From positions 140,041-164,040 of the forward strand of contig NZ_JAUTDR010000012.1 in the NCBI RefSeq assembly GCF_030649675.1: DNA of 24,000 nucleotides, given 5' to 3'. Below are positions 1 through 16,343 of the stretch, in pieces (position 1 is the first letter of the stretch; each line of letters starts with the position of its first letter). The notes under the pieces were generated by a model. That model saw only the letters and a program-made list of their open reading frames with translations, did no database searches and had not been told where the DNA came from. This DNA is from Haliea sp. E1-2-M8 (GTDB lineage Bacteria > Pseudomonadota > Gammaproteobacteria > Pseudomonadales > Halieaceae). A program made the position numbers and the translations under genes.

Positions 1-2
1 GC

Positions 3-599: not shown

Positions 600-617
600 A
601 CCGCGGAGGCGCCGCTA

Positions 618-2048
618 ATGCCCCTGCTCGAAGGCCTGCACCCCGTGGGGCTGGCGCTGGCCACCCTGCTGCCCTGGCTGGCGGGCTGCGGTGCGGTCCG
701 TTGCTGGCTGGGGCCAGTGCCGACCACCCTGCTGCTGGGCCACGGCTATCTGCTCGGGCAATTGCTCGCGGTGCTGTTATTGCTGACCTGGGACGCGCTG
801 GGCTTCACCCTTGCCTGGTGGCCGCTGGCCACTGCCCTGGCAGCGTTCGGCGCTGGCCTGTGGGCGCTCAGCCTGCGGCGCCACCCTGCCCACTGGCGCC
901 CCACTGTCTGTTTAAGTCCCGCGGACCTGCTGTGGCTGCTGCCCCTGGCCTGGTTCCTCTGGAGCCGGGGTTCGGTGCTGGTGGCAGAGCTGGCGCTGCG
1001 CCCGCTGTTTGCCTGGGATGCGTGGATGAACTGGGTGCCGCGGGCGGTGGTCTGGTTCGAACACGGCAGCCTGACCGAGTTTGTCCTGCCCCCGGCCTGG
1101 CTGGCGGCCGCGCCCGGCAGCGAACTCTATACCCTGGGCAACTGGCGGGCGGGTGCCTATCCGCCGGGCGTGCCGCTGCTGCTGCTGTGGCAGATGCTGG
1201 GCGCCGGGACCTTCGACCACACCCTGCTGTACCTGCCCTGGCTGCTGCTGGCCGCTGCCTGCGCGCTGGCGCTGTGGGGCCACCTGCGGCTGGTCGGCCT
1301 GGGGCGGGTGCCCACGGCCATCGCAGTCTACCTTTTGTTGAGCATGCCCCTGCTGACTACCCATGCGGTGCTGCCCGGATATGCGGACCTCTGGCTGGGG
1401 GTGTGCTTCACCCTGGGGGCGATGGCGCTGGCCCAGTGGCAGCACAGCGGCGAGCGGCGCTACGCGGGTCTGGCCCTGGCGCTGGCGCTGTTCTGTACCC
1501 TGCTGAAGACACCCGGTACGGGGTTTGCCCTGCTGCTGGTGTTGGCTACGCTGCTGTTCTGGTGGCGGCCCCCCGCGGCCTGGGTGCGTGCGACTGTGCT
1601 GGGCGGGCTGCTGCTGTTGCTGGCGGGCCTGCTGGCGGGGTTGAACCCGGAGCTGGTGCGCTATCTGCAGGAGCAGCCGGTGCTGGCGCTGCCCGGGCAC
1701 CTGCCGGCGCTGAAACTGCAGCTCAGCCCCCTGCTCCCCTACCTGGGGCAGACATTTTTCGTCTACGACAACTGGCACCTGCTGGGTGTGCTGCTCCTCG
1801 CCGCCCTGCTGGCGCGGGTGCTTGCCTGCGGCCCCGCCAGCCTCAACAGCATCGCCCTGCTGTTGCTGACCGGCGGCGCGGTCGTACTGGCGCTGGTCTT
1901 CGGCTTCACCCAGTACGGCCAGCGCCTGGAACAGGGCATCACCTTCCACCGCAGCTTCCTCTACCTGACGCCGCTGGCGGTATTTGTCGCCTTCGCCTGC
2001 CTGCAGCCGCTGCTGCCCCGGGCCGCCGCTGGCAGGGCACAGGAATGA
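618..2048 (+). CDS. Polytopic inner-membrane protein of the polysaccharide cluster (candidate Wzy-type polymerase or GT-C-like glycosyltransferase; family not resolved)
   Basis: 476-aa ORF that is Leu/Ala/Trp-rich with many hydrophobic segments throughout. GGAGG at 605-609 lies 8 nt before the ATG at 618. Its stop overlaps the next gene's start (ATGA at 2045-2048). Function is inferred from context only. Confidence 0.6.
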   Translation: MPLLEGLHPVGLALATLLPWLAGCGAVRCWLGPVPTTLLLGHGYLLGQLLAVLLLLTWDALGFTLAWWPLATALAAFGAGLWALSLRRHPAHWRPTVCLSPADLLWLLPLAWFLWSRGSVLVAELALRPLFAWDAWMNWVPRAVVWFEHGSLTEFVLPPAWLAAAPGSELYTLGNWRAGAYPPGVPLLLLWQMLGAGTFDHTLLYLPWLLLAAACALALWGHLRLVGLGRVPTAIAVYLLLSMPLLTTHAVLPGYADLWLGVCFTLGAMALAQWQHSGERRYAGLALALALFCTLLKTPGTGFALLLVLATLLFWWRPPAAWVRATVLGGLLLLLAGLLAGLNPELVRYLQEQPVLALPGHLPALKLQLSPLLPYLGQTFFVYDNWHLLGVLLLAALLARVLACGPASLNSIALLLLTGGAVVLALVFGFTQYGQRLEQGITFHRSFLYLTPLAVFVAFACLQPLLPRAAAGRAQE

Positions 2049-3424
2049 GTGCGCAGCGCCAGCCCAATCCCGAGCTGGGCCGCTTTGGCCCCCTGCTCGA
2101 TGCCGCGGCGATACTGCTGGCTGGCTATGGCTCCTGGTGGCTGCGCTGGTCGCGCCCGGAAGTTGCCTCACACTATCTGCTGGCGCTGCTGTTTGGCCTG
2201 TGTCTGGCGCTGGTGCTGCTGCCCGCGGCCCGCGCCTACCGCACGCCACTCTGGTGGCACCCGCTGCGCGGCGTGCTGGCGGCGGCACCGGGGCTGGTGG
2301 CACTGTTCGGGGCACTGATGCTGATCGCCACCCTGACCAAGACCAGCGCCGATTTTTCCCGCCTGTGGATGGCCGGCTGGGTGCTGCTCAGCCTGCCGCT
2401 GATGAGCGGCTGGCGCTTCCTGCTGGGCCACTTCGGCCGTGCCTCGGGGCGGCGGGTGCTGCTGCTGGGCAGCGGCGCGCTGGCGCGGGAGACTGCCCAA
2501 CAGCTCAGCTTGAGTGGTGGACCGGCGGCAGTGGCCGGCTGTGTGCGTCTGCCCGGAGAGGCGCCCTCCAGATCGCCCGTGCTGCACTGCCTGGGCACCC
2601 TGGCGGAGCTGGAGGCAATCCTGGCGGCGGCGGAGCCCGCGGTAACCGAACTCTGGCTGGCGCCGGACCAGCCCCCGGGGCGCGATGATGACGCCCTGCT
2701 CACCCGGCTGCGGCTCTACAGCCTGCCGGTGTGCTATGTGCCGGACCTGAGCATGCTGAACCTGCTCAACCAGCGCGCCAGTGAGGTAGACGGCGTTACC
2801 GTTATTGCGCTCAACGCCACGCCGCTGGACGGCCCCGACGCCTGGCTCAAGAGTCTTATGGATATCTCCCTGGCGCTATTGCTGCTGCTCCTGCTGGCGC
2901 CCCTGCTGCTGCTGGTCGCCCTGCTGGTGCGCCTCGACAGCCCCGGGCCGGTGCTGTATCGGCAGCTGCGCCATGGCAGCGGCGGCCAGCTGATCGAGGT
3001 GCTGAAGTTCCGCACCATGAGCGACGGCGCGCCGAGCGATTCCTTCAGCCAGGCCCGCCGCGATGACTCGCGGGTAACCCGCAGCGGGCGGTTCCTGCGC
3101 CGCAGTAGCCTGGATGAACTGCCACAACTGCTGAACGTGCTGCGCGGGGACATGTCCCTGGTGGGGCCGCGGCCGCACCCGGTGGCGCTGAACGAGGAAT
3201 ACGCGGCCAAGCTGGCCGCCTACATGCAGCGGCACCGGGTCAAACCCGGCATTACCGGCTGGGCCCAGATCAACGGCTACCGCGGGGAAACCGACACCCT
3301 GGAAAAAATGCAAAAACGCCTGCAGCATGATCTCTACTACATCGAGCACTGGTCCCCGGGGCTGGACCTGCAGATTCTCGCCAAAACGGCCCTGCTGGGC
3401 TGGACCGGTGCCAATGCCTACTGA
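2045..3424 (+). CDS. Polyprenyl-phosphate sugar-phosphate transferase (bacterial sugar transferase family, WbaP/WcaJ-type initiating enzyme of EPS/O-antigen synthesis)
   Basis: This is the C-terminal 459 codons of the 907-aa ORF 701..3424. The in-frame ATG at 2045 overlaps the upstream stop. There are N-terminal TM segments and then hallmark motifs: SPGPVLYRQ.RHG, KFRTM, DELPQLLNVLRGDMSLVGPRP, KPGITGWAQING. Confidence 0.88.
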   Translation: MSAQRQPNPELGRFGPLLDAAAILLAGYGSWWLRWSRPEVASHYLLALLFGLCLALVLLPAARAYRTPLWWHPLRGVLAAAPGLVALFGALMLIATLTKTSADFSRLWMAGWVLLSLPLMSGWRFLLGHFGRASGRRVLLLGSGALARETAQQLSLSGGPAAVAGCVRLPGEAPSRSPVLHCLGTLAELEAILAAAEPAVTELWLAPDQPPGRDDDALLTRLRLYSLPVCYVPDLSMLNLLNQRASEVDGVTVIALNATPLDGPDAWLKSLMDISLALLLLLLLAPLLLLVALLVRLDSPGPVLYRQLRHGSGGQLIEVLKFRTMSDGAPSDSFSQARRDDSRVTRSGRFLRRSSLDELPQLLNVLRGDMSLVGPRPHPVALNEEYAAKLAAYMQRHRVKPGITGWAQINGYRGETDTLEKMQKRLQHDLYYIEHWSPGLDLQILAKTALLGWTGANAY

Positions 3425-4406
3425 GCCGCTATCTCCCGAGCCCCTGGTTGATGAACCCTTAACTGGTGAGCCACTACCTGCTGAGCCACGGGCCGCTGCA
3501 GCCAGGCGCCCGAACCTGTTCCTGGTGGGCGCGCAGAAAAGCGCCACCACCACCCTGGCGGTGATGCTGGCCAGCCACCCCGAGGTCGCCATGGCGACGC
3601 CCAAGGAGCCGGGCTTTCTGGCCTTTGGCGAGCAGGGCTATACCTGCCGCGATGGCCACGGCGCAGCCACTGCGGCCAGCGGCTGGGTGCTGCGTTCCGA
3701 GCGGGACTACCTGGCCCTGTGGCAGGGAGCGCCGGCCCGGGCCCGGGTGCTGGGGGAAGCCAGCACCTGGTATTTGTCCGAGCCGGGCTGTGCGGAAAAG
3801 CTGCAGGCCTTCAACTCCGACGCCCGGATTGTGATGCTCCTGCGCCAGCCTGCGGACCGCGCCTATTCCGCCTGGTGCCACGCCCTGCGCGATAAAGAGG
3901 AGCCCTGCGCCCGGTTCGAGGATGCGCTGGCCGCAGAGGCAGAGCGGGTGCAGCCCTCGCACCTGCTGCGCTACCGGGAGCTGGGGCACTATGCCCGCTA
4001 TCTGCGCCGCTACCGGCAGGTGTTTGGGCCCGAGCGGGTGCTGGTGCTGTTCTACGAGGACCTGCTCCACCAGCCCGAGACACTGTGGCGCCAGTGCTGC
4101 GAGTTTTTGCAGATCAGCCACACACAGGCACCGGCAGCGCACCGGCAGAATCGCTCCGGCATGCCGCGCAGCCAGCTGCTGCACAAGCTGCTGCGCTCGG
4201 AGCGATTCAAGCGCCGCGTCAAGCAGCTACTGCCGCTGTCGTTTGTGGCCCGGGTCAAGGGGCAGCTGGATGCGGTGAACCTGGCGTGGCTGCCGCCGAT
4301 TCCGCCAGAAACCCGCCGCCAACTGACCCGGGAATTCGCCGCGGAAATCCGCGAACTCGAACGCCTGACCGGGCGCGATCTGCAGCACTGGCTGGGCGAT
4401 GCCTGA
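3414..4406 (+). CDS. PAPS-dependent sulfotransferase family protein
   Basis: A 5'-PSB-like loop (LFLVGAQKSATTTL) and a 3'-PB-like motif (LLRQPADRAYSAW) are present. The internal ATG at 3414 is preferred over 3327 because upstream codons overlap the preceding gene in another frame. The N-terminus carries an (EPLxx)x4 repeat linker. Confidence 0.8.
   Translation: MPTEPLSPEPLVDEPLTGEPLPAEPRAAAARRPNLFLVGAQKSATTTLAVMLASHPEVAMATPKEPGFLAFGEQGYTCRDGHGAATAASGWVLRSERDYLALWQGAPARARVLGEASTWYLSEPGCAEKLQAFNSDARIVMLLRQPADRAYSAWCHALRDKEEPCARFEDALAAEAERVQPSHLLRYRELGHYARYLRRYRQVFGPERVLVLFYEDLLHQPETLWRQCCEFLQISHTQAPAAHRQNRSGMPRSQLLHKLLRSERFKRRVKQLLPLSFVARVKGQLDAVNLAWLPPIPPETRRQLTREFAAEIRELERLTGRDLQHWLGDA
3424..3492 (+). 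repeat. 15-bp tandem repeat (about 4.6 diverged units, GAGCCnCTnnnnnnn) encoding an EPLxx pentapeptide repeat at the sulfotransferase N-terminus
   Basis: Units read directly: gagccgctatctccc / gagcccctggttgat / gaacccttaactggt / gagccactacctgct / gagccacgg. The translation is EPLSP EPLVD EPLTG EPLPA EP. Confidence 0.8.
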
Positions 4407-5202
4407 ATTACGCATGCTGGACAGCGCCCTCGCCGGCCCGGCCCTGCGCCGGTTCGCCGGCTGCGCGCTGCAGCCGCAGAGCCTGCAGGCGCTGCTGCAG
4501 AAGCTGTTGCCGCGGCTGACTGCGGGCGCTGCACCCCTGCTGGTGGGCCACCACAACCTGTACAGCCTGTATCTGCAGCAGCGGGACCCGGAGGTGGCGG
4601 CGTTTTACCGGCAGTGCGACAGCTGCTATGTGGATGGGGTGCCGGTGCTGTGGCTGCTGCGTGCGGCCGGCATCGACATACGCGGGGCGCAGCGCTTCTC
4701 GTTCATGGATTGCCTGCCGGAACTGCTGGACTTCGCCCAGACCGGGAAACTGCGGGTGTTTTACCTGGGTTCGGAAGACGCCGCCATCGAGCGCGCGCAG
4801 GGCTGGGTGGCGAAGGGCTGGCCGCAGCTGGAGATCGCCTGGCAGCACGGCTACAGCAAGGACGAGGCCGCGGTGGTGGCCGCGATCAATGCCTTCAGGC
4901 CGCAGCTGCTGCTGGTGGGCATGGGCATGCCGAAGCAGGAACAGTGGATCCTGCGCCACCGGGCGCAGCTACAGGCCGGCGCCATTTTCCAGGCCGGCGG
5001 TACCCTGGACTACTACACCGGTTTGCAGGCGCAGCCGCCCGCGGGCCTGAGCCGGCTGGGGCTGGCCTGGCTGTACCGCTTGCTGCACGACCCGAAACGG
5101 CTCTGGCGGCGCTATCTGCTGACACCCTGGGCGCTGCTACGCCCGACCCTGCGCCTGCGGCGGGAACTGCGTGCGGAACGGCGGCTACAGCGCGCAGCGT
5201 AG
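4399..5202 (+). CDS. WecB/TagA/CpsF-family glycosyltransferase (GT26)
   Basis: Family signature LLLVGMGMPKQEQWI ... AGAIFQAGGTLDYYTG is present. The ATG at 4399 overlaps the sulfotransferase stop by 8 nt. An alternative in-frame ATG exists at 4414. Confidence 0.85.
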   Translation: MPELRMLDSALAGPALRRFAGCALQPQSLQALLQKLLPRLTAGAAPLLVGHHNLYSLYLQQRDPEVAAFYRQCDSCYVDGVPVLWLLRAAGIDIRGAQRFSFMDCLPELLDFAQTGKLRVFYLGSEDAAIERAQGWVAKGWPQLEIAWQHGYSKDEAAVVAAINAFRPQLLLVGMGMPKQEQWILRHRAQLQAGAIFQAGGTLDYYTGLQAQPPAGLSRLGLAWLYRLLHDPKRLWRRYLLTPWALLRPTLRLRRELRAERRLQRAA

Positions 5203-6177
5203 CGCACGCAGCAGTGCGCCGGCCTTGCCCAGCAGCGAGCCCCGTGCCATGACGATGGCCCGGCCGTAATTGCGCACCATGGTCAGGCGGCGGCGCAACC
5301 GGAGCGGGCGACTGCGCTGACCCATCTCCGCCACCACCTCGGCCAGCTCGGGGCGGCGCTGCAAGCCTAGCGCCGTGCGGGCGAGCCGGACAATCTGCCG
5401 GCTGCGTTGCCAGCGCAGGTACAGCCGCCCCGGCCTGCCGATGCTGGCAAAGGCGTTGCTGCGGTGAATGCGGTAGAAAAATCCGGGCGTTGCCGAATGG
5501 TACTTGCGGCACCCCGCCACCGAGGAAGCGCGGACGATAATGCCATCCCCGGACAGGCGCGCCGCGGTGTGCGAGTGCCGGGGAATACCCAGCCAGCGGG
5601 CGATGCGGGTGCTCACAGGCATCTGGTCGGGGAGGTTTTCACGCACGGCCAGAAGGCGCCGGGCCAGGCTGCGCCGCAGTGCCAACCCAGAGGTCGGGGC
5701 GCCGACATATTCACCGCCTGACACGGTACTCCAGCGGGACGTGCCGGTGGGACCTTCCGGCAAGGCCATGTCGGCGAGCATGCGCCTTATCCCGCGGACA
5801 CTGGCTGAGGATTCGCCCCCAACCTGCGCTGCACAGAAGAACAGCTCGATGTCGGGCCAGGCCCCGGCGAGCGCGCGCAGGCGCTGCAGATAGCCGGGCA
5901 GAAAGTAGTCGTCGCTGTCGAGCAACAGGCAGAGATCACCGCGGGCGGCCTCCAGGCCATTGCACAGGGCCGCGAGCTGGCCCTGGTTGGCCTGCTGCAA
6001 AACTGTTACCTGTGGCAGGCGTGCGTACGCGGCGAGAATCTCCGGCGAGGCATCAGTGGAGCCGTCGTCGACAACAATCAGCTCATCATCCGGCGCCAGT
6101 TGCGGCAGCACTGAATCAAGTGCTTCGCGCAGGTAGCGCGCATAGTTGAAGTTGTCCACTACCACCGACAGACGCAC
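5185..6177 (-). CDS. Family 2 glycosyltransferase
   Basis: N-terminal GT-A signature: LSVVVDNFNYARYLREALDSVLPQ...DELIVVDDGSTDAS ... LLDSDDY (DxD). The GTG at 6177 is preceded by GAGGA (spacing about 5 nt) that overlaps the upstream stop. The longer ORF start at 6282 would overlap the flippase gene. Confidence 0.8.
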   Translation of the reverse strand: MRLSVVVDNFNYARYLREALDSVLPQLAPDDELIVVDDGSTDASPEILAAYARLPQVTVLQQANQGQLAALCNGLEAARGDLCLLLDSDDYFLPGYLQRLRALAGAWPDIELFFCAAQVGGESSASVRGIRRMLADMALPEGPTGTSRWSTVSGGEYVGAPTSGLALRRSLARRLLAVRENLPDQMPVSTRIARWLGIPRHSHTAARLSGDGIIVRASSVAGCRKYHSATPGFFYRIHRSNAFASIGRPGRLYLRWQRSRQIVRLARTALGLQRRPELAEVVAEMGQRSRPLRLRRRLTMVRNYGRAIVMARGSLLGKAGALLRALRCAL

Positions 6178-6184
6178 GGTATCC

Positions 6185-7560
6185 TCAAAAAACAGTAGTA
6201 CGTAAATGGTACTGGCGGCGCACCAGCCACCAGCAACCGGTGGCGAGCAGCAGGCTGCTGGCGATACTGGCCAGCGCCGCACCCAGGGCGCCCAGCACGG
6301 GTATCAACACCGCCAGCACCAGCAGATGCAGCGCCGCCGCCAGCACGGTGAGCCGCATTACCTGCTGCTGGTGGCCACTCATCACCAGCACCTGCTGGCA
6401 GTGCCCGAACAGCACGGCGCACAACTGCGCCAGCAACAGTGCCACCAGCACCGGCAACGCCGCGGCAAATTCGCCCCCAAACAAAGCCAGCAACCAGGGG
6501 CCGGCGGTAAATAGCAGCGCGGCCGCGACTACGCTCGGCCACAGGCTCACATGCGCAGCCTGAGTCACCACGCGCTGGAGGCGCGCCCGATCGCCCTCGG
6601 CGTGGGCGCTGGCCAGCCAGGGCTGGATCACCGCGGAGGTGACCGCGCCCGGCATGCCCGCCAACTGCGCCAGGCGGTCGGCGACAAAAAAACTGGCGGC
6701 GGCCAGCGGCCCGCCGATCAGGCCCAGCAGCAGGGTGTTGCCGTAGGTCATGACAATGTCGGCGACCCGGGTAGCGAACACCGGCATGGACTGGCGCAGC
6801 AGGTCCGCGGCCCCCGGGGTGGTGTCGCGGTTGTCCCCAGTAGTGTCAGCAGTGATGGCTGGGTCAACCGCAGGCTCAGTGCTGCCCGCCGCCGCGCTGA
6901 CAAGCGGCGGCCGCGCGCCCTCCCAGAGCAACTGCGCCAGCAATACCAGCAGCAGGCTGAGCGCGAGTGCAGTCAGAATGTCCAGCGCTGTCAGCGGCCG
7001 TTGGACCAGCAGGAATGCGCCCAGGGCCAGCAGGCCGGTAAGCAACGGGCGCAGCACCTGTATCGGGACGAACGCGGAGAACAGCCGCGACGCCGCCCGC
7101 GCCAAAGCCTGGCGCAACAGAATCAGGGCGAGCAGCGGGGATGCCAGCAGGGCCAGGCTGACGACCGCGCGCGGCAGCTCCGTAAACAGCGCTGCCGGCA
7201 GGCTCCAGACGATCAGCAGCCCTGCCCCGGCACCGGCGCAGCTGATCACAATGACGCAGCCGTGCGCGTTTCTGCTCAATTGGCGCAGAGCGGTGTAGTC
7301 CCCTCGGTGGACATGCACCGCGGCGAGCCGGCTGGCCATCATCGGAATGCCCAGCGCAAACAGCGTGCCGAGCAGGAACAGCAGGTTCTGGCCCCAGGCA
7401 TACACGCCGTAGGTAGTGGCGTCCGCCGCCAGGCGCGCCAGCAGAATCTGCAGCAGGAATACCACCGCCAGGCCGACGGCGCGAATGACCGCCGCCACCG
7501 CGCTTGAGCGCAGTACCTCACTGCGCCCCAGAAGGCGCCCTCCCCGCAACAGCCGTGCCT

Positions 7561-7564
<4 letters not shown>
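6185..7564 (-). CDS. Polysaccharide flippase-like membrane protein (MOP/Wzx superfamily)
   Basis: 459 aa with about 12 hydrophobic segments. The N-terminus (...[32 protein letters not shown]) resembles Wzx/polysaccharide biosynthesis proteins. There is an ATGA overlap with the upstream uxs-like gene. The assignment rests on architecture plus context. Confidence 0.6.
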
Positions 7565-8517
<953 letters not shown>

Positions 8518-8609: not shown

Positions 8610-9347
8610 CTATCTCACCAGCGACGCAGCCGCGATGGCGAACAGGGCTGACAACAATGTCCCGATCAACATGTATTCGGCAAATATCGGGTTTTTCAGC
8701 TTGTCAAATCTCACTAATCCCTTGGCGGCGATAATAAAGCCGAGAGCGCTCCAGTCGTCGGCGAGCAAAACCACCATAAGCATCAGCCAGCGCTCCAATA
8801 TGCCGATAACCCGGCCTGCGTTGTACTCCCTTATATCGAGGTCATCTGCGGGAGGCGAAGCAAGACGCGGCACCAGATTCAGGGCACTAAAAATACCCCT
8901 CATGGCAATATTGACTTCGTTGGCCAACACCAGCATCGCCACAAATATCGATGCGATGCGCCCCGCGGCAACAGGCTGGTGATAGCCCAGGGAGGCGATA
9001 ATATCGCTGCAATACCCTGCCATGGATATAGAAACCGTAGAAAGCGAAAAGCCGCCCAACACCGGGTACAGCACGGCAGGAACCAGGGCAACGCTGGCCA
9101 GTACGCCAAGTCGCGCCCAGTGAACTTTCCCTTTGGTTTCCAGCCAGCCCCCCACTACTGAAAAGGCAAGAGCCACGCCCCCAGAAATCCAGGTGAAAAG
9201 ACTTGAACCAAATACGACAAGTATAATTGCAGCCTGCGCAAGACCCAATATACCCGCAAACTTCCAACCAACAGCGTCATCCCTCTGCAGATACACTAGC
9301 CGGGTTGTTAACACGATGCACAGGAAAACCTGATACTCAATTACCAT
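8610..9347 (-). CDS. DUF3307-like multi-pass membrane protein (partner of the SatD-family gene)
   Basis: Multiple hydrophobic segments. The C-terminal block NAGRVIGILERWLMLMVVLL...GFIIAAKGLVRF...AEYMLIGTLLSALFAI matches my recollection of DUF3307. The ATG at 9347 has GAGG 6 nt upstream and is preferred over 9389. It overlaps the satD stop by 11 nt. Confidence 0.55.
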   Translation of the reverse strand: MVIEYQVFLCIVLTTRLVYLQRDDAVGWKFAGILGLAQAAIILVVFGSSLFTWISGGVALAFSVVGGWLETKGKVHWARLGVLASVALVPAVLYPVLGGFSLSTVSISMAGYCSDIIASLGYHQPVAAGRIASIFVAMLVLANEVNIAMRGIFSALNLVPRLASPPADDLDIREYNAGRVIGILERWLMLMVVLLADDWSALGFIIAAKGLVRFDKLKNPIFAEYMLIGTLLSALFAIAAASLVR

Positions 9348-9972
9348 GGTTACCTCGCAAGGCGTCATCCAGACATGTTGATATGGCACTGGAAATGTCG
9401 GCCAGAGTTCCGAGCAGTCCGTCGGCGATGTTTTTGTAGACTGCGGATTTGCTTATTTCAAGCTCGTTGGCGATGTCGCGAACTGGATGACCAGCCAAGT
9501 GCAATCGATACACCTCAAGACGGTTGTGCTGCCATTGCTCTTGCAAGTGAGACACCAGCGCCAATGAGTGATTGGTCAGCTCTCCCTGCGGCAGCCCTTC
9601 AACCCGATATAACCCACCGTGTTGCTTCAATACATCAATCGCATCTCTCGCACGATGGAAGGCAGGGCCATCCATACCCAGCGCCGCCTTCCTGTTGATT
9701 GGCGTATCGATTCGCCCCAAACCTACGCCGAATCGCACCTTGGTGGGAAACAATCGGCTTTGAATGGTGGCGACCATTGCCCACAGGGGTGTCGCTGTGG
9801 TCAACACCGCCTGGAACTCATCACCCAGGGTGATGGTGAGAGGCGATGCCAGCGCTTTTTTGTTGCGAAGATTGAGCTCTGTGAGCACGACCTCCAGCTT
9901 CGTCTGCAATTCGCCCCGTTCCAACACCTCGCGGGAACTGCAGATATCGCCGATCAACGCCAGATAATTCAT
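9337..9972 (-). CDS. SatD-family protein: N-terminal palm/cyclase-like domain plus C-terminal HTH
   Basis: N-terminus YLALIGDICSSRE ... PLTITLGDEFQAVL ... VRFGVGLG ... LGMDGPAFHRARDA fits the SatD family pattern as I recall it. The C-terminal HTH is VRDIANELEISKSAVYKNI. Confidence 0.7.
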   Translation of the reverse strand: MNYLALIGDICSSREVLERGELQTKLEVVLTELNLRNKKALASPLTITLGDEFQAVLTTATPLWAMVATIQSRLFPTKVRFGVGLGRIDTPINRKAALGMDGPAFHRARDAIDVLKQHGGLYRVEGLPQGELTNHSLALVSHLQEQWQHNRLEVYRLHLAGHPVRDIANELEISKSAVYKNIADGLLGTLADISSAISTCLDDALRGNHGN

Positions 9973-9973
9973 G

Positions 9974-10047
9974 TCAACCGTCCTGGTTGAAAATGCTTGA
10001 TTTCAACCATAATGGTTTACTTTCTGATTTTCAACCGAAATGGTTAA
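9974..10047. promoter_or_regulatory. Three copies of a 17-bp palindrome TCAACC-N5-GGTTnA (candidate operator array for the satD operon)
   Basis: Read directly. The copies are 9974-9990 TCAACCgtcctGGTTGA (perfect), 10003-10019 TCAACCataatGGTTTA and 10031-10047 TCAACCgaaatGGTTAA. Centre-to-centre spacing is 29 and 28 bp. The first copy abuts the satD ATG (9970-9972). Confidence 0.45.
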
Positions 10048-10287
10048 ATCCAGGGGTGCCAGTGCGACTCTTGCGGCCTCCAACACACCGGCATCAAACT
10101 CGTAGCCTCCTCGTGTCTTGAGCCAATCCAGAACTTCCGTGAGATGCGAGAGCGAAACACTGCCTTCGTGCACCGGTAAGGGAAATGTCGCGCGGTGGGC
10201 GAGCATGAGTTTGCGCATCGCCTGGCGGTAAATACACACGATGTCCGCCACGTCCGTCAGACCAACAAGATATTGGTCGCCACCCAT
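10003..10287 (-). CDS. Small putative DNA-binding protein (excisionase/MerR-superfamily wHTH, antitoxin-like)
   Basis: 94-aa ORF directly upstream of satD on the same strand. The pattern LVGLTDVADI...FPLPV...SLSHLTEVLDWLKTRGGY resembles small wHTH/antitoxin-type proteins. The start is uncertain (ATG 10287 or TTG 10269). The 3' end overlaps two operator-like palindromes. Confidence 0.4.
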   Translation of the reverse strand: MGGDQYLVGLTDVADIVCIYRQAMRKLMLAHRATFPLPVHEGSVSLSHLTEVLDWLKTRGGYEFDAGVLEAARVALAPLDLTISVENQKVNHYG

Positions 10288-10765
10288 GTCAGCCTCCCGC
10301 CATCCCCAGATCGGTAGCTACGGCACGCTACTGCTAAGCCTCGGCTTCGCCGCCGGGCTTACCGCGCTGCTGACTACTGTCATCACGCTCCGCGCCAGTC
10401 TTCCTGAACAGGCCCAATCAGCACCGCTGCCGGTCGCCACGCTCCTTTTTCAACAGGAGGATAGCTACCAGGAGACACTCCGCCTCACCGGCCTGCTGCA
10501 GGCGCGGGAACGGGCGCAGTTGGCGTTCGAGGTACCCGGCCTGCTGCTGTCGTTGGACGCGCGGGAAGGCGAACGCGTGGCCGCAAGGGCGGTGCTAGGG
10601 CAATTGGATACCCGGCAACTGGAAGCCCGGCGTGCGGCCGCGGCGGCGGATCTCGCCAGCGTGGAGGCGGATCTGGAATTGGCGCGTTTGCGCAGCGAGC
10701 GCAGTACGCAACTGCCACAACTGTTCCTGCTGCTGCGCCCAACCAAATGGGACCTGACCCTTTAA
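10286..10765 (+). pseudogene. Truncated N-terminal remnant of an RND/efflux periplasmic adaptor (membrane fusion protein, HlyD family)
   Basis: A signal-anchor (LLLSLGFAAGLTALL) is followed by an adaptor-like lipoyl/coiled-coil start (LRLTGLLQARERAQLAFEVPGLLLSLDAREGERV...LGQLDTRQLEARRAAAAADLASVEADLELARL). Only about 150 aa are present. The frame then runs into REP copy A and stops. Confidence 0.6.
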
Positions 10766-10818
10766 TTTTGGAGAAAGGGGGGGAAGAGAGAAAAGGGACC
10801 TGACCCTTTATTTTTGGA
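10749..10818. repeat. REP-like repeats A and B (direct tandem pair)
   Basis: 10749-10772 GGGACCTGACCCTTTAATTTTGGA and 10795-10818 GGGACCTGACCCTTTATTTTTGGA. Each can form a short AAAGGG/CCCTTT hairpin. Confidence 0.85.
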
Positions 10819-10836
10819 CACAGGGGGGAGGCAGAC

Positions 10837-11496
10837 GTGAGCAAATCCCGGCAGGAAACACCCCGGAACTACCATCACGGGGATCTTCGCAATGCATTGA
10901 TCATCGCGGCTGCAGAGTTGATTGAAGAAAGCGGAAGCACCGATTTCGCCATGATTGACGCCGCGCGCAGGGCAGGCGTCAGCAGCGCGGCTCCCTATCG
11001 CCATTTTCGGGACAAGTCTGCCATTCTGGAGGCGGTGGTCGAGTTCGCCTTCTTCGCCCTGGCCAGGGATATGGAGGCCGTCATTCCCCAAAACGCGCGG
11101 GACAGCATCGCGACCATCGTCGCCCTGGGCCAGGCCTACATCCGTTTTGTGACGGGACATCCCCAGTTCTACGCATTGATGTGGGGGGACCTCGGTGATC
11201 GGGAAGTCCGCCAGACCGACACCGAGCTTCGCAGCTCAGGTTTCTATATTTTGGTTGACGCGGTGCGCGCCTGGTGTGAGCAAAATGATCGCGGCGATGA
11301 GGATGCGCTTACGCTCGCAATCAAGCTCTGGGGCATGGCACATGGTCTGAGCGGAATTGCCATGCATGGGCACATCGAGCGATTTCTGCCGCAGGCGGAC
11401 GTTTATTCCCTGCTGGAAACCAGTACCTACACTTTCCTTGATGGCGTGCGCCAAGGACAAAATAAAGGGTCAGGTCCGTCCTTAAAACGGACCTGA
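10837..11496 (+). CDS. TetR/AcrR-family transcriptional regulator
   Basis: N-terminal HTH signature YHHGDLRNALIIAAAELIEESG...MIDAARRAGVSSAAPYRHFRDKSAIL. The GTG start has GGAGG at 10826-10830. The last ~11 codons and the stop lie inside the REP doublet C/D (..QNKGSGPSLKRT*). Confidence 0.85.
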   Translation: MSKSRQETPRNYHHGDLRNALIIAAAELIEESGSTDFAMIDAARRAGVSSAAPYRHFRDKSAILEAVVEFAFFALARDMEAVIPQNARDSIATIVALGQAYIRFVTGHPQFYALMWGDLGDREVRQTDTELRSSGFYILVDAVRAWCEQNDRGDEDALTLAIKLWGMAHGLSGIAMHGHIERFLPQADVYSLLETSTYTFLDGVRQGQNKGSGPSLKRT

Positions 11497-11508
11497 CCCT
11501 TTAAATTT
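11459..11508. repeat. REP doublet C/D (inverted pair, REPIN-like hairpin; likely bidirectional terminator)
   Basis: The 16-bp perfect stem pairs 11463-11478 (TAAAGGGTCAGGTCCG) with 11488-11503 (CGGACCTGACCCTTTA), leaving a 9-nt loop. A TTTT run follows on the minus strand after the RAYT stop. The element sits between the TetR end and the RAYT end. Confidence 0.8.
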
Positions 11509-11515
11509 CGTGAAG

Positions 11516-12202
11516 TCACCGCAGTTGCGGTCGCCCCGTCACCCGGGGGGCGACCTCCCTGCCAGCCAGTTTGCCGATACGTTCCAGGAACTCTTCGCTG
11601 CCAACGGCCCGGTTCTGGGCCGCGGCGCGGCGCAGTGCTTCCAGCACGGACTCCGGCAACTGCTGTGCCACAATGGTGCGATAACGTTGCCGCCGAGAAC
11701 CGGGTTTATCACCCAGCGCCAGATATTCCCTCCGCGGAACCACGAGCAACGATGAGCGCTCGCCCGCGTTCGTGTGCCACGATGACCAGAGCCAATCGCC
11801 CGGCTGAGCAACCATACCTGCACGTACAGGGTTAAATTCTATGTAGGACATGCAAGCAAAAAGATAGCGATCCGTGTCGACAATATTGGACTTGTAACGA
11901 CCGGCCCACAGTGCTCCCGTTCGTTCAAATCGGCGATTCACACGCTGAGCATAGTCACGGTTGAGATTTTGCATAAGCTTGCCGAGCCCGCCTTCCATTT
12001 CGGGAGTTACCAGCAAGTGGACGTGGTTGGTCATCAGGCACCAGGCGTGCACCGACACCCGGTAAATCCCGGCGTAATGCCTGAGCAGGCTGAGATACGC
12101 GAGGCGGCAGTCCGCATCAAAAAACACCGTCGCTCGATTGACGCCCCGCTGCACAACATGGTGCGGGTATCCGGGCAGCTCCAGACGAGGTTGACGTGGC
12201 AT
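11516..12202 (-). CDS. REP-associated tyrosine transposase (RAYT; IS200/IS605 Y1 transposase-like)
   Basis: MPRQPRLELPGYPHHVVQRGVNR..VFF...YL.LL......VHAWCLMTNHVHLLVTP ... RYKS..V..D.YL....YIEFNPVRAG is typical of the TnpA_REP/RAYT family. The ATG at 12202 is preferred because the longer ORF start (12313) lies inside the loop of REP doublet E/F. Confidence 0.8.
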   Translation of the reverse strand: MPRQPRLELPGYPHHVVQRGVNRATVFFDADCRLAYLSLLRHYAGIYRVSVHAWCLMTNHVHLLVTPEMEGGLGKLMQNLNRDYAQRVNRRFERTGALWAGRYKSNIVDTDRYLFACMSYIEFNPVRAGMVAQPGDWLWSSWHTNAGERSSLLVVPRREYLALGDKPGSRRQRYRTIVAQQLPESVLEALRRAAAQNRAVGSEEFLERIGKLAGREVAPRVTGRPQLR

Positions 12203-12292
12203 GGCGAATTCCGAAGTGAGCCTATGGAGCGCCAGTATTGCCTCTGCTCCAAAGCCGGATAAAGCGTCTGGCCAGATTGGGTGAAAAATAAA

Positions 12293-12333
12293 GGGACCTG
12301 CCCCTTTTTCCAAAAAATAAAGGGTCAGGTCCG
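12293..12333. repeat. REP doublet E/F (inverted pair; probable rho-independent terminator of ampG on the minus strand)
   Basis: 12294-12307 GGACCTGCCCCTTT pairs with 12319-12332 AAAGGGTCAGGTCC (14 bp, 1 mismatch, 11-nt loop). On the minus strand the stem is followed by CTTTATTTTTCAC. The element starts 4 nt after the ampG stop. Confidence 0.75.
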
Positions 12334-12336
12334 TTT

Positions 12337-13680
12337 TTACCCAGGCCGCGCCACCCGCAACAGCACAAATGCCAGGATGATCGCCGGCAACCCGGTGGCG
12401 GCGGTAATGAAAAAGAACGGCACCCAGCCCACCATTTCCGCCAATACCCCGGTAAAGCCTGCCAGTAATTGCCCGGGCAGGGTCATCAGGGAACTGAACA
12501 GCGCGTACTGGGTAGCGGTGTAGGCGGTATTGGTGAGGCTGGACAGATAGGCAATGAACACCGAGATCGCCAGCCCGCCGGAGACATTGTCGGCAATGAT
12601 CGCCAGCACCAGGCCATAGGTTTCCGGGCCGATAAACGCCAGCCAGGCAAACGCCAGATTGGTGGCCGGCGCCATGAAGGCGGTCAGCAGAAGGATCCGG
12701 GCAATGCCGTAGCGGGCCACGAGCAGCCCGCCCACCACCGCGCCCAGCAGGGTCATGCCCAGGCCAAAGGCGGCGGCGATATTGGCGATCTGCGCCTTGC
12801 TGAAGCCCAGGTCCAGGTAGAAGGGATTGGCCATGACCCCCATGAAAATATCGGTGAGGCGGAAGGTGCCGATAAAGGCCAGAATCAGCAGGGACACGCG
12901 GCCGTAGCGCTGGAAGAACTCCGCAAACGGGCAGACCACCGCGCCAATCAACCAGGCCTGCATCTCACGGCGCCAGCCGCGATGGTCCGTGCTCGCCAGA
13001 TAGTCGGTCACCCGTTGTTCGAACTGTACCGTGGTCTGGCTGACGGTGATCGCGGGCTCGGCGATGACCAGGGTGGTGACGATGCCCACCGCCATCAGCA
13101 GCCCCATTACCGCGTAGGCCACCGACCAACTGTCGAGGTTGGCCAGGTGCAGGGCCCCCGCCCCCGCCGCCAGGATCGCCACCCGGTAGCCGGTGACATA
13201 GGTGGCTGCCATCGCCCCCTGGCGGTGCTTCGCCTCTGCTTCCACCCGGTAGGCGTCGATGGCGACGTCCTGGCTGGCGGAGCCGAAGGCCGCCAGCACC
13301 GCCCACAGCGCTACCAGCCCCAGCTGTTCTCGCGGGTCGGTGAAGGCCATGCCCAGCAGGGCCGTGGCAATGACCAACTGCGCCAGCAGCATCCAGGCCC
13401 GCCGCCGCCCCAGCAGACGGCTGAGCAGGGGCAACTGGGCGCGGTCGATCAGCGGCGCCCACAGCACCTTGATGGAATGGGCCATGCCGACCCAGCTGAG
13501 AAAGCCGATCGCCGCGAGCTCTACCCCGAGGTCCCGCAGCCAGGCACTGAAGGTGCCCCCCACCAGCAGCAGCGGCAAGCCGGCGGAAAAGCCGAGGAAC
13601 AGCATGCCGATGACCCGCGGGTTCAGGTAGACGCGCAGACCCTCTGCGGCGGGTACGGGAAGGGGCTCACGGTCATTCAT
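12337..13680 (-). CDS. ampG: AmpG-family muropeptide permease (MFS)
   Basis: 447 aa with a 12+ TM profile. The N-terminus YLNPRVIGMLFLGFSAGLPLLLVGGTFSAWLRDLGV...IGFLSWVGMAHSIKVLWAPLIDR...LGRRRAWMLL is characteristic of AmpG. Confidence 0.8.
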   Translation of the reverse strand: MNDREPLPVPAAEGLRVYLNPRVIGMLFLGFSAGLPLLLVGGTFSAWLRDLGVELAAIGFLSWVGMAHSIKVLWAPLIDRAQLPLLSRLLGRRRAWMLLAQLVIATALLGMAFTDPREQLGLVALWAVLAAFGSASQDVAIDAYRVEAEAKHRQGAMAATYVTGYRVAILAAGAGALHLANLDSWSVAYAVMGLLMAVGIVTTLVIAEPAITVSQTTVQFEQRVTDYLASTDHRGWRREMQAWLIGAVVCPFAEFFQRYGRVSLLILAFIGTFRLTDIFMGVMANPFYLDLGFSKAQIANIAAAFGLGMTLLGAVVGGLLVARYGIARILLLTAFMAPATNLAFAWLAFIGPETYGLVLAIIADNVSGGLAISVFIAYLSSLTNTAYTATQYALFSSLMTLPGQLLAGFTGVLAEMVGWVPFFFITAATGLPAIILAFVLLRVARPG

Positions 13681-13850
13681 GGATCTAACTTTCCGGGCTG
13701 GCGGCGGCGCGGTCCATCATAGCGGCTGCAAAGTCGGGTGCAAGCATTGTGCGCGCCCTGTGCCCTGCCGTCTGTTAACGCACAGAACCTGCGCCGAAAC
13801 CGTGAAAAACTTGAACTCAAAGCACTTCGACAGGAATGTGCTAGTAGCGA

Positions 13851-13866
13851 GCATTCAACTGAATGC
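13851..13866. promoter_or_regulatory. Perfect palindrome GCATTCA-AC-TGAATGC just upstream of the RBS of the 13880 operon (operator or 5'-UTR hairpin candidate)
   Basis: Read directly. It ends 1 nt before GAGGAG (13868-13873) and 13 nt before the ATG at 13880. Function is unknown. Confidence 0.25.
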
Positions 13867-13879
13867 CGAGGAGTGTGTA

Positions 13880-14458
13880 ATGACACCATCTTACCCAGAC
13901 CCCAATCGCGGCGACGGGGGCAGTACGCCAGACGACCCCAAGAGCGGGACCGCGCAAGAGAAAATTGAAGCAGACGCCCGGGACGCGAAACGCGAAGCGG
14001 GTGCCAAAGCGCGCGAGCAGGCAGAAACCGGCCAGCACAAGCTCGCGGAAGGTGCGGACGCCCTGTCGGATGCCATTGATGCAGCCGCCTCAAACCTCGA
14101 CGATCACGACCGCGAGGGGCTGGCCCGCTACGCGCGCGAGTTGAGCAGCAATCTGGCGAACGCGGCGGGACAGCTGGAAGACCGCAGCGTCGATGACCTG
14201 GCGAAGGATGCCAAGCGTCTGGCGCGGGACAATCCGGCGCTGTTCATGCTTGGCAGTATCGCAGTCGGTTTTGGTCTGTCGCGGTTTTTCAAGGCGAGCG
14301 CGGAGCGCGACCACCACGACGATAGCAACGCCCCGCGTAACGCTGGAACGTCCCGGAATGAGGACTTCTCGACCCGCACGCCAGTGCAACCACGTATGAC
14401 GGAAACCTACAGAACACCGACTGCCCCAGGCAGTGGTGACGGGAGGGAAATCCTATGA
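13880..14458 (+). CDS. Charged, membrane-anchored stress-type protein (ElaB/YqjD-like architecture; family uncertain)
   Basis: The ATG at 13880 has GAGGAG 6 nt upstream. Upstream codons of ORF 13679.. overlap the ampG start and look non-coding. The protein has a long acidic/basic helical region, then the anchor NPALFMLGSIAVGFGLSRFF, then a polar tail. Confidence 0.6.
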   Translation: MTPSYPDPNRGDGGSTPDDPKSGTAQEKIEADARDAKREAGAKAREQAETGQHKLAEGADALSDAIDAAASNLDDHDREGLARYARELSSNLANAAGQLEDRSVDDLAKDAKRLARDNPALFMLGSIAVGFGLSRFFKASAERDHHDDSNAPRNAGTSRNEDFSTRTPVQPRMTETYRTPTAPGSGDGREIL

Positions 14459-14883
14459 ACCAGGAACATGAAACCGCGCCGAATGTACCGGCGAGCCGCG
14501 AACACGGCAATGAATCGATCGCCGACCTGATTCGTGATCTCGCCACGGACCTGTCCAGCCTGCTGGGCAAGGAGATCCAGCTGGCGAAAGCCGAGGTCGG
14601 GGAGTCTGTCTCGGAAGCCAAAACCGCAGTCGGCGCGCTTGCAACGGGCGCGGCCATCGCCATGGCGGGGCTCGTTGTACTGCTCATGAGCGCGGTGTAC
14701 GGACTCAGCAACGTCGTTGAGCCGTGGCTGGCAGCGCTGATTGTCGGCGCGGCCGCGCTGCTGATTGGCTACGTGATGGTCCATTCGGCCAAGGGCAAGA
14801 TGAGCGCGAGCTCAATGGTGCCGGATCGCACGCTGGATTCCGCGAAGAAGGACCAAGAGACACTGAAGAGGGCTGCCCGATGA
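14455..14883 (+). CDS. Holin-X / 'phage holin family' (holin superfamily III-like) two-TM membrane protein
   Basis: SIADLIRDLATDLSSLLGKEIQLAKAEV... is followed by two TM helices, then KGKM...KKDQETLK. This matches the Holin-X family pattern. There are ATGA overlaps with both neighbouring genes. Confidence 0.7.
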   Translation: MNQEHETAPNVPASREHGNESIADLIRDLATDLSSLLGKEIQLAKAEVGESVSEAKTAVGALATGAAIAMAGLVVLLMSAVYGLSNVVEPWLAALIVGAAALLIGYVMVHSAKGKMSASSMVPDRTLDSAKKDQETLKRAAR

Positions 14884-15569
14884 GCAACGCTACCGATACC
14901 AGCGGCGATGACACTCGCCACGACAAGCAACACGACGAAACGAAAAGCCCGGAACGGCTGGAACGCGAAGTGGACCAGGCGCGCGCCCGCCTCGGCAGGA
15001 CCGCGAGCGAGCTCTCGGATCGGCTTTCGCCCGGTGAACTCATGGACCAGGCGCTGGGCATGGCCCGCGAGCACGGCGGGGAGTTCGGCCGCAACCTGGG
15101 CGCCCAGGTGAAAAACAACCCGATACCGATGATTCTCACCAGCGTTGGCATCTCCTGGATGATGATGTCGTCCGGCAACAACGGCACGGCGCAGACCCAT
15201 CGCACGCACGATACCGGCACAGGCAGCGAGGGGCACGGTTTCAAGGACGCGCTTGGCAACACCGCCGCGAAATCGCGGGACGCGGCCTCCGCCGTGGGCG
15301 ACCGCGTGCACGGTGCCACCGCGCATGCCAGCGAGTCAGCGCAGAACGCCCGGGACAGCCTGGTGAAGTTCTATCGCGACCAACCGCTGCTCGCGGGAAG
15401 CCTTGGCATCGCCATCGGCGCCGCCCTCGGTGCGCTGGTGCCACCAACGGAGATGGAGGACAACATGCTCGGCGAAGCGAGAGATCGCAGCGTCGAGGCC
15501 GCGAAGTCCGAAGCCGTAAACAAGTACGACGAGGTGCGGGAGTCGGCGCGGTCGAAATCAACGACCTAA
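14880..15569 (+). CDS. DUF3618-domain protein
   Basis: SPERLEREVDQARARLGRTASELSDRLSPGELMDQA is a DUF3618-like N-terminus. There are internal hydrophobic segments (NPIPMILTSVGISWMMM; LLAGSLGIAIGAALGALV). The ATG at 14880 overlaps the upstream TGA. Confidence 0.65.
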   Translation: MSNATDTSGDDTRHDKQHDETKSPERLEREVDQARARLGRTASELSDRLSPGELMDQALGMAREHGGEFGRNLGAQVKNNPIPMILTSVGISWMMMSSGNNGTAQTHRTHDTGTGSEGHGFKDALGNTAAKSRDAASAVGDRVHGATAHASESAQNARDSLVKFYRDQPLLAGSLGIAIGAALGALVPPTEMEDNMLGEARDRSVEAAKSEAVNKYDEVRESARSKSTT

Positions 15570-15717
15570 GCGAGTTGGGGCAGCATGCAGCAATACTGCA
15601 TGCGGGCTCGTCTCCAGCCTGCGCTTGATTTGCCGCGGGACTTGAGCACGCGCCTGACGTATTCTTCTGGTGACCGCCGGGGAGCCCGGCTCCCACATTC
15701 TGTCACTGGAGAATACT

Positions 15718-16038
15718 GTGAGCTCTTCCTACAATTCGGACGCGCCGGCCCGCCACGACATTGATGCGCTGGCCGGCGTCACGCTGCTGGAATTCGGTAC
15801 TGACTGGTGCGGACATTGCCGGATGGCGCAGCCCATTATCGCCGCAGCAATCGCAAAACAGTCTGAGCTACGCCATCTCAAGGTCGAAGACGGCAAGGGC
15901 CGACCCCTGGGCCGCTCATTCGGCGTCAAGCTGTGGCCCACCCTTATATGCCTGCGCGACGGCCAAGAGGTCGGCCGGCTGGTGCGCCCTGCCAGCGGGG
16001 CGGCGGTGCAGGAGCTCTTGGCCAGGGCAGGTAAATAG
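15718..16038 (+). CDS. Thioredoxin-fold protein with CGHC active site
   Basis: LLEFGTDWCGHCRMAQP ... KLWPTLICLRDGQEVGRLV matches the thioredoxin fold, including a cis-Pro region. The GTG at 15718 has GGAG 6 nt upstream and is preferred over the GTG at 15670. Confidence 0.7.
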   Translation: MSSSYNSDAPARHDIDALAGVTLLEFGTDWCGHCRMAQPIIAAAIAKQSELRHLKVEDGKGRPLGRSFGVKLWPTLICLRDGQEVGRLVRPASGAAVQELLARAGK

Positions 16039-16343
16039 CGGATTTGATGATTGCCCCGTGGCACCGGTGTACTGGAAAACCTGTCACCCGGGTGAGAGCC
16101 GAAACTCAGCCAATACCGGACGTTTGCCACCAATCGTAGCATTTGCACGGCATGTCCAGCTACTACTCGCTTGATTCCGGAACCCTAACCGCCCAAAACC
16201 TTGCTCCCGGCAGCCGTTGACACTCGAAAGTCTGGATTTGTGCTATTTTTTATTGTGGCGGCTACAAACCGAAAGGCGTCGGTTTCATGTAACACGCTGC
16301 AAGCGACCTGCAAGACTGTGTCAGCCTGTGAAAGCTGAATCTT

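Follow-up and report, generated by a model that had tools for sequence, protein, structure and literature searches.

In the 24,000-nucleotide stretch of the Haliea sp. E1-2-M8 genome analysed here (the window), two adjoining minus-strand genes, satD and a downstream gene for a SatE-like membrane protein, probably form a self-contained autoregulated operon, in which SatD would act as a dimeric autorepressor with its palm domain as a nucleotide signal module, and SatE as output and partner. What the computations give directly are the fold of SatD, its invariant residues, the pairing of the two genes, the arrays of palindromic operators upstream of satD and the covariation between these operators and the SatD recognition helix. 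Both proteins are 100% identical to deposited proteins of this strain. A first-pass annotation, made from the DNA letters, had described a low-GC islet of three genes (encoding a winged helix-turn-helix protein, a SatD-family protein with cyclase- and GGDEF-like motifs and a DUF3307-like membrane protein) and had put it forward as a candidate signalling or conflict module. The features of the pair, with structures predicted by AlphaFold2 (AF2) and their predicted local distance difference test (pLDDT) scores, are as follows.

9337 to 9972, minus strand: satD, 211 amino acids, 'SatD family protein', with palm domain, helical linker and helix-turn-helix (HTH); Pfam SatD E=6.5e-32, AF2 pLDDT 95.4
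9589 to 9972, minus strand: SatD residues 1–128, cyclase/GGDEF-like palm domain, from the AF2 model and Foldseek against the Protein Data Bank (PDB)
9946 to 9948, minus strand: codon of D9, at the end of strand beta-1, invariant in 203/203 sequences
9814 to 9825, minus strand: codons of G50-D51-E52-F53, the GDEF motif in the beta2–beta3 hairpin, aligned to GDCY/GDAY of cyclases
9421 to 9528, minus strand: SatD residues 149–184, three-helix HTH (AF2 helices 149–159, 164–171 and 175–184)
8610 to 9347, minus strand: SatE-like polytopic membrane protein, 245 amino acids from the ATG, downstream of satD; AF2 pLDDT 91
8613 to 8942, minus strand: conserved C-terminal module of the membrane protein, residues 136–245 (NExN..R, EYNAGRVIGILERW, AAKGLxRF, FAEYMLIGTLLS), from hhalign

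SatD relatives were sought in one genome per species, at least 539 were found, and the best 80 loci, which span Gammaproteobacteria, Verrucomicrobiota, Chloroflexota, Ignavibacteriota, Bacteroidota, Calditrichia and others, were kept. In 77 of 86 sources a profile of the membrane protein picked up a co-oriented gene directly 3′ of satD, and once duplicates and contig ends had been removed such a gene was present in 73 of the 77 assessable loci. The satD–satE junction is overlapping in 41 of 67 loci, by 4 nt in 25 and by 11 nt in eight, and a gap of no more than 15 nt separates the genes in a further 21. Judged by gene order and by the form of these junctions, satD and a SatE-type membrane gene are co-conserved, as the first-pass annotation had supposed, and translationally coupled. 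In the window the overlap is 11 nt (an alternative GTG start for the membrane gene is possible at 9389) and a 94-amino-acid open reading frame (ORF), g1, lies 30 nt upstream of satD, so the coordinates bear out three co-oriented and tightly packed ORFs. However, none of the 85 other loci contains a homologue of g1, and in place of a three-gene islet the unit is one of two genes, satD and satE, which is widespread and of which the window copy is an ordinary family member.

The membrane protein matched nothing in Pfam, NCBIfam or PADLOC. A profile search of a collection of 5.8 billion proteins returned about 260 relatives, all of them unnamed or unannotated, and a HMMER scan gave 5,724 cluster representatives at E≤1e-3, of which 283 reached E≤1e-30. 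Its AF2 model is all-helical, with nine long helices and a one-turn helix, and has no fold match in the PDB (best Foldseek E=0.56). Neither the window protein nor 60 of its relatives matched Pfam DUF3307 (PF11750), which covers an N-terminal region with the motif HxLxDFxxQ, at E≤10, and the 60 relatives matched no other Pfam family. What stays constant among the SatE proteins is a C-terminal module, marked by the motifs NExN..R, EYNAGRxIGxLERW, AAKGxxRF and FAEYxLIGTLxS. By hhalign, residues 136–245 of the window protein align with residues 150–249 of a Halorientalis DUF3307 protein (probability 98.8%, E=6.6e-17); the gene for the latter follows satD on a haloarchaeal plasmid with a 4-nt overlap, and its product matches DUF3307 over residues 15–115 (E=3e-16). 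The Fusobacterium satD–satE pair has the same C-terminal motifs together with an N-terminal HLLADFLFQ that the window protein lacks. On this sequence evidence it is by its C-terminal module, a part that the Pfam DUF3307 model does not cover, that the window protein belongs to the SatE superfamily, and the earlier description 'DUF3307-like' thus holds at superfamily level but not as a match to the Pfam domain.

The window pair is homologous to satD–satE of the Streptococcus mutans sat operon and to the SatD–DUF3307 pairs of Fusobacterium and of haloarchaea, with the same gene order and overlap. It differs from these in that its membrane protein has neither the N-terminal DUF3307 domain nor HxLxDFxxQ, and the operator half-sites differ between clades. 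As for the S. mutans sat cluster, PMC12077213 goes no further than calling it 'implicated' in acid tolerance.

Fold and invariant residues of SatD

SatD matches the Pfam SatD family (PF16264) with 111.3 bits, where the gathering score is 29 bits, which confirms the family named by the first-pass annotation. The AF2 model, built on 64 homologues, shows a beta-alpha-beta-beta-alpha-beta palm in residues 1–128 and a helical part in residues 130–207, within which residues 175–184 form the recognition helix. The HTH that had been read from the letters behind the palm domain is thus recovered in the model; its Pfam matches at residues 150–185 (HTH_7, Sigma70_r4_2 and others) are weak and below the cut-offs, and PDB profile matches are to the HTHs of resolvase and YlxM.

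When the model was compared with the PDB by Foldseek, the top 38 matches were all class III cyclase domains. Among them were the cyclase domain of Rv1900c (E=8e-5, with a target-normalised TM-score of about 0.5), bPAC, Ma1120, soluble guanylate cyclase, mammalian adenylyl cyclase (AC) and, in ninth place, the Pycsar cyclase PycC. Rank 39 was the PucR-type regulator 9f80, and ranks 40–42 were another uridylate cyclase, the DosC GGDEF domain (E=3.7e-3, a fold-level match) and GTP cyclohydrolase III. The probability was 1.0 for Rv1900c, bPAC, Ma1120, PycC, DosC and GTP cyclohydrolase III alike. The model therefore agrees with the anticipated palm fold, class III cyclases being the best matches and Pycsar cyclases, GGDEF domains and GTP cyclohydrolase III following. 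A viral structure library likewise gave matches to cyclase and GGDEF domains, and no close viral relative.

Both of the motifs read earlier, ALIGD(9)ICSSRE and TLGD(51)EFQAV, are present, and the proposed check on their aspartates came out in their favour. In 203 SatD sequences, a set that includes Agrobacterium and haloarchaeal members, D9, S13, T48, G50, D51, E52, Q54, T90, M100, G102, F105 and R109 show no variation, and R80 is conserved in 202 and F53 in 199. D9 and D51 fall where cyclases and GGDEF domains have their metal-binding aspartates, which for the cyclases is the placement given by an hhalign comparison that is not significant by itself. By eye, R109 would correspond to the transition-state arginine of cyclases, and no lysine stands four positions before G50-D51 (I47/T48).

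The class III cyclases (Rv1900c, Ma1120, bPAC and mammalian AC C1/C2) and PycC share with SatD the palm, an aspartate at the end of beta-1 and another in the beta2–beta3 hairpin, a beta-4 arginine (VRFGVGLG in SatD, RIGIHTG in the cyclases) and an arginine in the following helix; unlike them, SatD has a shortened beta-hairpin arm and a fused HTH, and no significant sequence match joins the two. With the GGDEF diguanylate cyclases it has in common a hairpin LGDEF, identical to GGDEF at four of five positions and in the same structural place, whereas the first glycine is a leucine in SatD, the RxxD I-site is absent and guanine-binding residues were not identified. The regulators of the PucR/CdaR type (Mycobacterium tuberculosis MabR/Rv2242, PDB 9f80; BAD_0249, 3onq) resemble SatD in their order of palm, linker helices and C-terminal HTH, and Foldseek aligned 9f80 with the whole length of SatD (234 columns, E=3.3e-3), with a root-mean-square deviation of 14.8 Å, so the domain arrangement differs. 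There is no sequence similarity either: the PucR/CdaR families GGDEF_2 (PF17853) and HTH_30 (PF13556) are absent among the Pfam matches of SatD, which in addition has no further sensor domain at its N-terminus and has a membrane protein as its partner. Among described architectures the nearest is that of the PucR/MabR regulators, in which a GGDEF-like domain is joined to an HTH and dimers bind palindromic DNA; the palm motif is degenerate in that family, MabR having lost the catalytic motif (HGTWL) (PMC11617747). SatD, by contrast, keeps an invariant GDEF and D9. Because the modelled fold matches these enzymes and the ligand candidates are invariant, with no cyclase match at the sequence level, SatD represents a separate family of the cyclase/GGDEF palm superfamily in which candidate metal and phosphate ligands are kept.

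Operator arrays upstream of satD

In the 150 nt that precede satD, 60 of 81 loci carry the palindrome AACC-N5-GGTT, and 40 carry it at least twice. Its density there is 9.7 per kb, compared with 0.012 per kb over the rest of these loci (an approximately 800-fold enrichment), and control patterns with N4 or N6 spacers or swapped halves were near zero upstream of satD. When one degenerate position per half-site is allowed, a site is found in 74 of 81 loci and two or more in 62. There are up to four sites per locus, neighbouring sites are 28–29 bp apart in 95 of 112 cases, and the extended consensus is TTnAACC-(AT-rich N5)-GGTTnAA. The window contains only three exact matches in its 24 kb (0.23 expected), all at 9976–10045, where they lie over the only promoter-like site found on the minus strand.

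9976 to 9988: operator site 1, AACCGTCCTGGTT; the AGGA of the ribosome-binding site, 4 nt ahead of the satD ATG, falls in its spacer
10005 to 10017: operator site 2, AACCATAATGGTT; overlaps the predicted −10 hexamer
10033 to 10045: operator site 3, AACCGAAATGGTT; overlaps the predicted −35 hexamer
10006 to 10034, minus strand: predicted sigma-70-type satDE promoter (TTGAAA, 17-nt spacer, TATGGT), from a consensus match

The base 5′ of AACC was compared with each of the 211 SatD alignment columns, and the highest mutual information, 1.16 bits, was found for residue 176, which comes second in the predicted recognition helix; none of 5000 shuffles, which ignore phylogenetic relatedness, reached this value. 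All 15 loci with V176 have T, all nine with K176 and all five with S176 have C, one locus with R176 has G, and Q176 goes with C or A. Within the Halieaceae the pairing switches between close relatives, being S–C in the window and Kineobactrum, V–T in four relatives and T–A in another four. Both the chemistry of these pairs and the position of the residue in the helix are as direct readout by SatD would predict. As the operator arrays are conserved and residue 176 covaries with them, SatD is very probably a sequence-specific autoregulator, with palindromes at its own promoter and a predicted binding specificity that follows the recognition helix, as in autoregulatory HTH repressors. The first-pass annotation had named a plain transcription factor devoid of nucleotide chemistry as the outcome that would count against its proposal; the transcription-factor half of that outcome is what the arrays and the covariation point to.

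In distant SatD loci (Agrobacterium, haloarchaea, Fusobacterium and Fermentibacteria) repeated palindromes of other sequences were seen by eye upstream of satD. On the Halorientalis plasmid pHOS300 (L087, 3814–3973) four palindromes of another type, GTTCGSY...RSCGAAC, precede satD, which suggests that the layout of the array is conserved and the recognised sequence changed. On the Agrobacterium tumefaciens plasmid pAt (L086, 4013–5088) three ACC(C)-N-GG(G)T palindromes, approximately 28–29 bp apart, lie upstream of a distant SatD gene, which is followed by a gene for a 90-amino-acid hypothetical protein in place of SatE and is surrounded by antitoxin, HEPN-nucleotidyltransferase, HipA and DUF4365 genes.

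Proposed mechanism and alternatives

In the operon that we propose, SatD, which consists of the N-terminal palm, two linker helices and the C-terminal HTH, would bind, probably as a dimer, the arrays of two to four palindromes at its own operon, and since the sites cover the −35 and −10 hexamers and the ribosome-binding site, binding should repress satDE; from this we infer repression rather than activation. The palm domain would be the signal receiver, probably holding Mg2+-NTP (nucleoside triphosphate) or a related nucleotide through D9, S13, D51, E52, R80 and R109, and the binding or turnover of nucleotide would alter how the two HTHs are presented to the DNA. SatE would be the regulated output, made in step with SatD through translational coupling, and also its likely physical partner, with the charged C-terminal module docking on or signalling to SatD and thereby reporting a membrane-associated condition. 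The parts of this scheme differ in strength: that the palm domain binds a nucleotide or a metal we lean towards believing, whereas that it makes a signalling product seems unlikely. The same operon logic, in which a cytosolic DNA-binding protein is autoregulated and co-translated with a membrane protein, is found in BlaI/BlaR1-type operons of a repressor and a membrane sensor and in sigma/anti-sigma pairs; unlike these, SatE has no recognisable protease or sensor domain, and there is no homology.

Several observations weigh against this scheme. At the level of sequence, SatD has no match to Pfam Guanylate_cyc (PF00211) at E≤1 and none to Pfam GGDEF (PF00990), its motif being LGDEF (4/5), and PDB profile searches with full-length SatD and with the N-domain returned HTHs or noise and no cyclase. 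An hhalign comparison of the N-domain with six mammalian adenylyl cyclase domains was not significant (probability 1.6%); the residue pairing that it gave, D9 with the aspartate of FADI, D51 with that of GDCY and R80 with the arginine of RIGIH, serves only as a consistency check and agrees with the Foldseek fold match. By eye, the invariant F105, four positions before R109, apparently stands in place of the asparagine of the cyclase Asn–Arg pair, and no base-specifying Lys/Asp or Glu/Cys pair was found. The satDE promoter rests on a consensus match of 9/12, and the shuffle test, in ignoring relatedness, overstates the significance of the covariation. Four loci (L006, L007, L011 and L039) have satD without satE, so the partnership is not obligatory, and no structural support was obtained for a contact between SatD and SatE. 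Finally, the searchable literature yielded no experiment on any SatD member.

Three other explanations have to be set against the autoregulated operon. SatD might be an active nucleotidyl cyclase or GGDEF-like synthase whose messenger is sensed or gated by SatE, the HTH providing feedback or pairing the enzyme on the operator array; this corresponds to the sensor, messenger and effector scheme of the first-pass annotation. The fold match to cyclases, PycC among them, speaks for such an activity, as do the 203/203 invariance of the candidate metal and phosphate ligands (in MabR, whose GGDEF-like domain is non-catalytic, the motif has been lost; PMC11617747), the conserved Arg/Lys/Glu-rich module of SatE and a layout of cyclase plus membrane protein that resembles the two-gene Pycsar and cyclic-oligonucleotide-based anti-phage signalling (CBASS) systems. 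Yet a site that only binds a ligand would be conserved just as strictly, the asparagine and the base-specifying residues were not found, neither a Pfam cyclase or GGDEF match nor a PADLOC PycC or PycTM match was obtained for the pair, and no product or activity of SatD is known; we regard this explanation as improbable. Equally doubtful is the variant in which SatD is catalytically active while bound to DNA, the 28–29-bp arrays gathering the palm domains and the charged module of SatE reading the product or the consumption of NTP.

That the pair is an anti-phage, abortive-infection or toxin–antitoxin-like system, with SatD as antitoxin or sensor and SatE as a membrane-disrupting effector, is very unlikely. 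Autoregulated and coupled two-gene operons with palindromic operators are indeed typical of toxin–antitoxin modules, the genome position of the pair varies among Halieaceae, the membrane gene has been lost four times with satD kept, the Agrobacterium pAt gene lies among HipA, HEPN and antitoxin genes, and in Haliea relatives the GC content is about 8 points below the flanks. However, neither SatD nor SatE has a PADLOC match, there are no SatD relatives in 50,697 phage records and only 10 in 72,556 plasmid records, mostly megaplasmids, and SatE, with 245 amino acids, many helices and many invariant polar residues, is unlike small membrane toxins. When the nearest two ORFs to either side of the pair are taken, the neighbours fall into 146 Pfam families downstream and 139 upstream, mostly housekeeping (PdxJ, DUF2400, OPT, aminotransferases), and only a handful of the 274 neighbour ORFs match PADLOC models at E≤1e-10. 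The commonest of these families (DUF2400, OPT, PdxJ and CAAX protease) come from one Ignavibacteriota/Bacteroidota clade in which synteny is conserved. The context of satDE fits no defence island, and the 'conflict module' that had been suggested for this locus finds no backing in these counts.

Nor is it likely that the pair serves here as a dedicated regulator or sensor of the adjoining polysaccharide cluster by read-through into its epimerase, flippase and GT2 genes; we hold this to be quite unlikely. The pair shares its strand with the UXS-like epimerase, Wzx-like flippase and GT2 genes and lies 92 nt upstream of them, with no terminator-like site before the epimerase; the satE–epimerase order recurs in a Haliea metagenome-assembled genome (MAG), and in a Porticoccaceae MAG the pair is inside a polysaccharide cluster. 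Against this, polysaccharide genes flank the pair only in the window, in that one Haliea MAG and in Porticoccaceae MAGs, the contexts elsewhere are unrelated (in Parahaliea the pair is between rarA and lolA), and neither the cluster nor the rest of the 24 kb holds a further operator site. A general link of the pair to polysaccharide synthesis, being seen only in a few relatives, was rejected.

The autoregulated operon that we favour concerns a family whose function is not established, which is present in at least 539 species-representative genomes and whose partner superfamily amounts to about 5,700 clusters at 50% identity. Our literature search, in which 'SatD' was swamped by satellite-DNA and chemistry abbreviations, found no paper in which a cyclase fold, an operator or a function is ascribed to SatD, and a single, incidental mention of DUF3307; the Pfam family name was already known, and the reading of the SatD family is new. 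It makes the family testable, through the operator TTnAACC-N5-GGTTnAA in 28–29-bp arrays, a predicted specificity residue (176) and the candidate ligand residues D9, S13, D51, E52, R80 and R109. If the palm only binds a nucleotide, SatD would be a compact model for GGDEF-like control of HTH regulators such as the PucR family. If it is catalytic, SatD would be a transcription factor carrying a working cyclase-type active site, and a previously unrecognised nucleotide-signalling module would be common to many bacterial phyla and haloarchaea.

Surroundings of the pair

The GC content of the block at 8610–10287 is 0.537, as against 0.684 in the polysaccharide cluster at 1–8517 and 0.627 at 10288–16000, so the drop relative to the immediate flanks that the first-pass annotation had noted is real. 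It is not distinctive: the right third of the window (16001–24000) has a GC content of 0.544, and the satDE block is therefore not uniquely GC-poor in the window. In 65 other loci the pair is 0.016±0.035 lower in GC than its flanks. A foreign island of low GC was rejected on both grounds, the agreement with the right third of the window and the lack of a systematic drop across loci. No Rfam families and no tRNAs were found in the window; as it contains no tRNA, there is no tRNA-linked island. The polysaccharide cluster, at 0.684, contrasts with 0.54–0.63 in the remaining window, and it may be this cluster, not the satDE block, that is compositionally foreign.

To the left of the pair, the cluster contains genes for a sugar transferase, a sulfotransferase, WecG, GT2, the Wzx-like flippase and the UXS-like epimerase, and a truncated ORF and a TetR gene come to the right beyond g1, together with a REP-like (repetitive extragenic palindromic) element in six copies.

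3327 to 4406: sulfotransferase gene, in the polysaccharide cluster
10287 to 10003, minus strand: the 94-amino-acid ORF g1, the 'wHTH' of the first-pass annotation
10241 to 10765, plus strand: truncated ORF of 174 amino acids
10837 to 11496: TetR gene
10749 to 10763, 10795 to 10809, 11464 to 11478, 11488 to 11502, 12293 to 12307 and 12319 to 12333: REP-like copies

The ORF g1 forms a singleton cluster, and it was rejected as a regulator of the module since none of the 85 other loci has a homologue. It matches the PADLOC model PDC-M06B (E=4e-25) over profile positions 81–150 of 174 only, and the excisionase-type PHROG phrog_2620 over positions 76–151 of 187 only; a literature search for PDC-M06 found nothing. 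Nucleotide similarity between the window and Kineobactrum, its closest relative, spans only 9287 to 10055, and the domain homology of g1 (10060–10269) halts just outside that end of the conserved satD upstream region, so that about 18 codons at the 3′ end of g1 are read from this region and through the operator sites. Because it has no homologue elsewhere, matches its profiles only in part and meets the similarity boundary at 10055, g1 is taken as a chimeric remnant and not as a partner: it is likely to be what is left of a longer excisionase- or PDC-M06B-like gene fused to the satD upstream region, and it looks like the product of a rearrangement beside the satD promoter.

In the four loci that lack satE, satD is kept with its operator and satE has been deleted or shortened, apparently in independent events; only the first 21–28 satE codons are left in Kineobactrum sediminis (L006, 8629–8691) and in L007 (8626–8709). 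In the syntenic clade (L042, L045, L047, L049, L050, L053, L055, L059, L064, L069 and L085) the sizes and strands of the neighbouring ORFs are conserved, with ORFs of about 265 and 240 amino acids upstream in nine of the 11 loci and of about 260 and 670 amino acids downstream in seven. These are probably the PdxJ, CAAX protease, DUF2400 and OPT transporter genes of the neighbour census, which would speak for a context that is old and has been passed on vertically. Elsewhere, one ORF neighbouring a satDE pair on its downstream side was matched by two PADLOC models, PycTM and '2TM effector' (E approximately 1e-19 to 1e-31), so an effector of the Pycsar/CBASS type adjoins satDE in at least one genome.

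The truncated ORF at 10241–10765 resembles the N-terminus of an efflux membrane-fusion protein, with no Pfam match at E≤1e-3; its start overlaps the start of g1 on the opposite strand and its end falls within the REP-like elements. These have the core AAAGGGTCAGGTCCC and occur in six copies (0.02 expected) as direct and inverted pairs, which come after the truncated ORF and flank the TetR gene, and they may mark the point at which an efflux locus was broken up.

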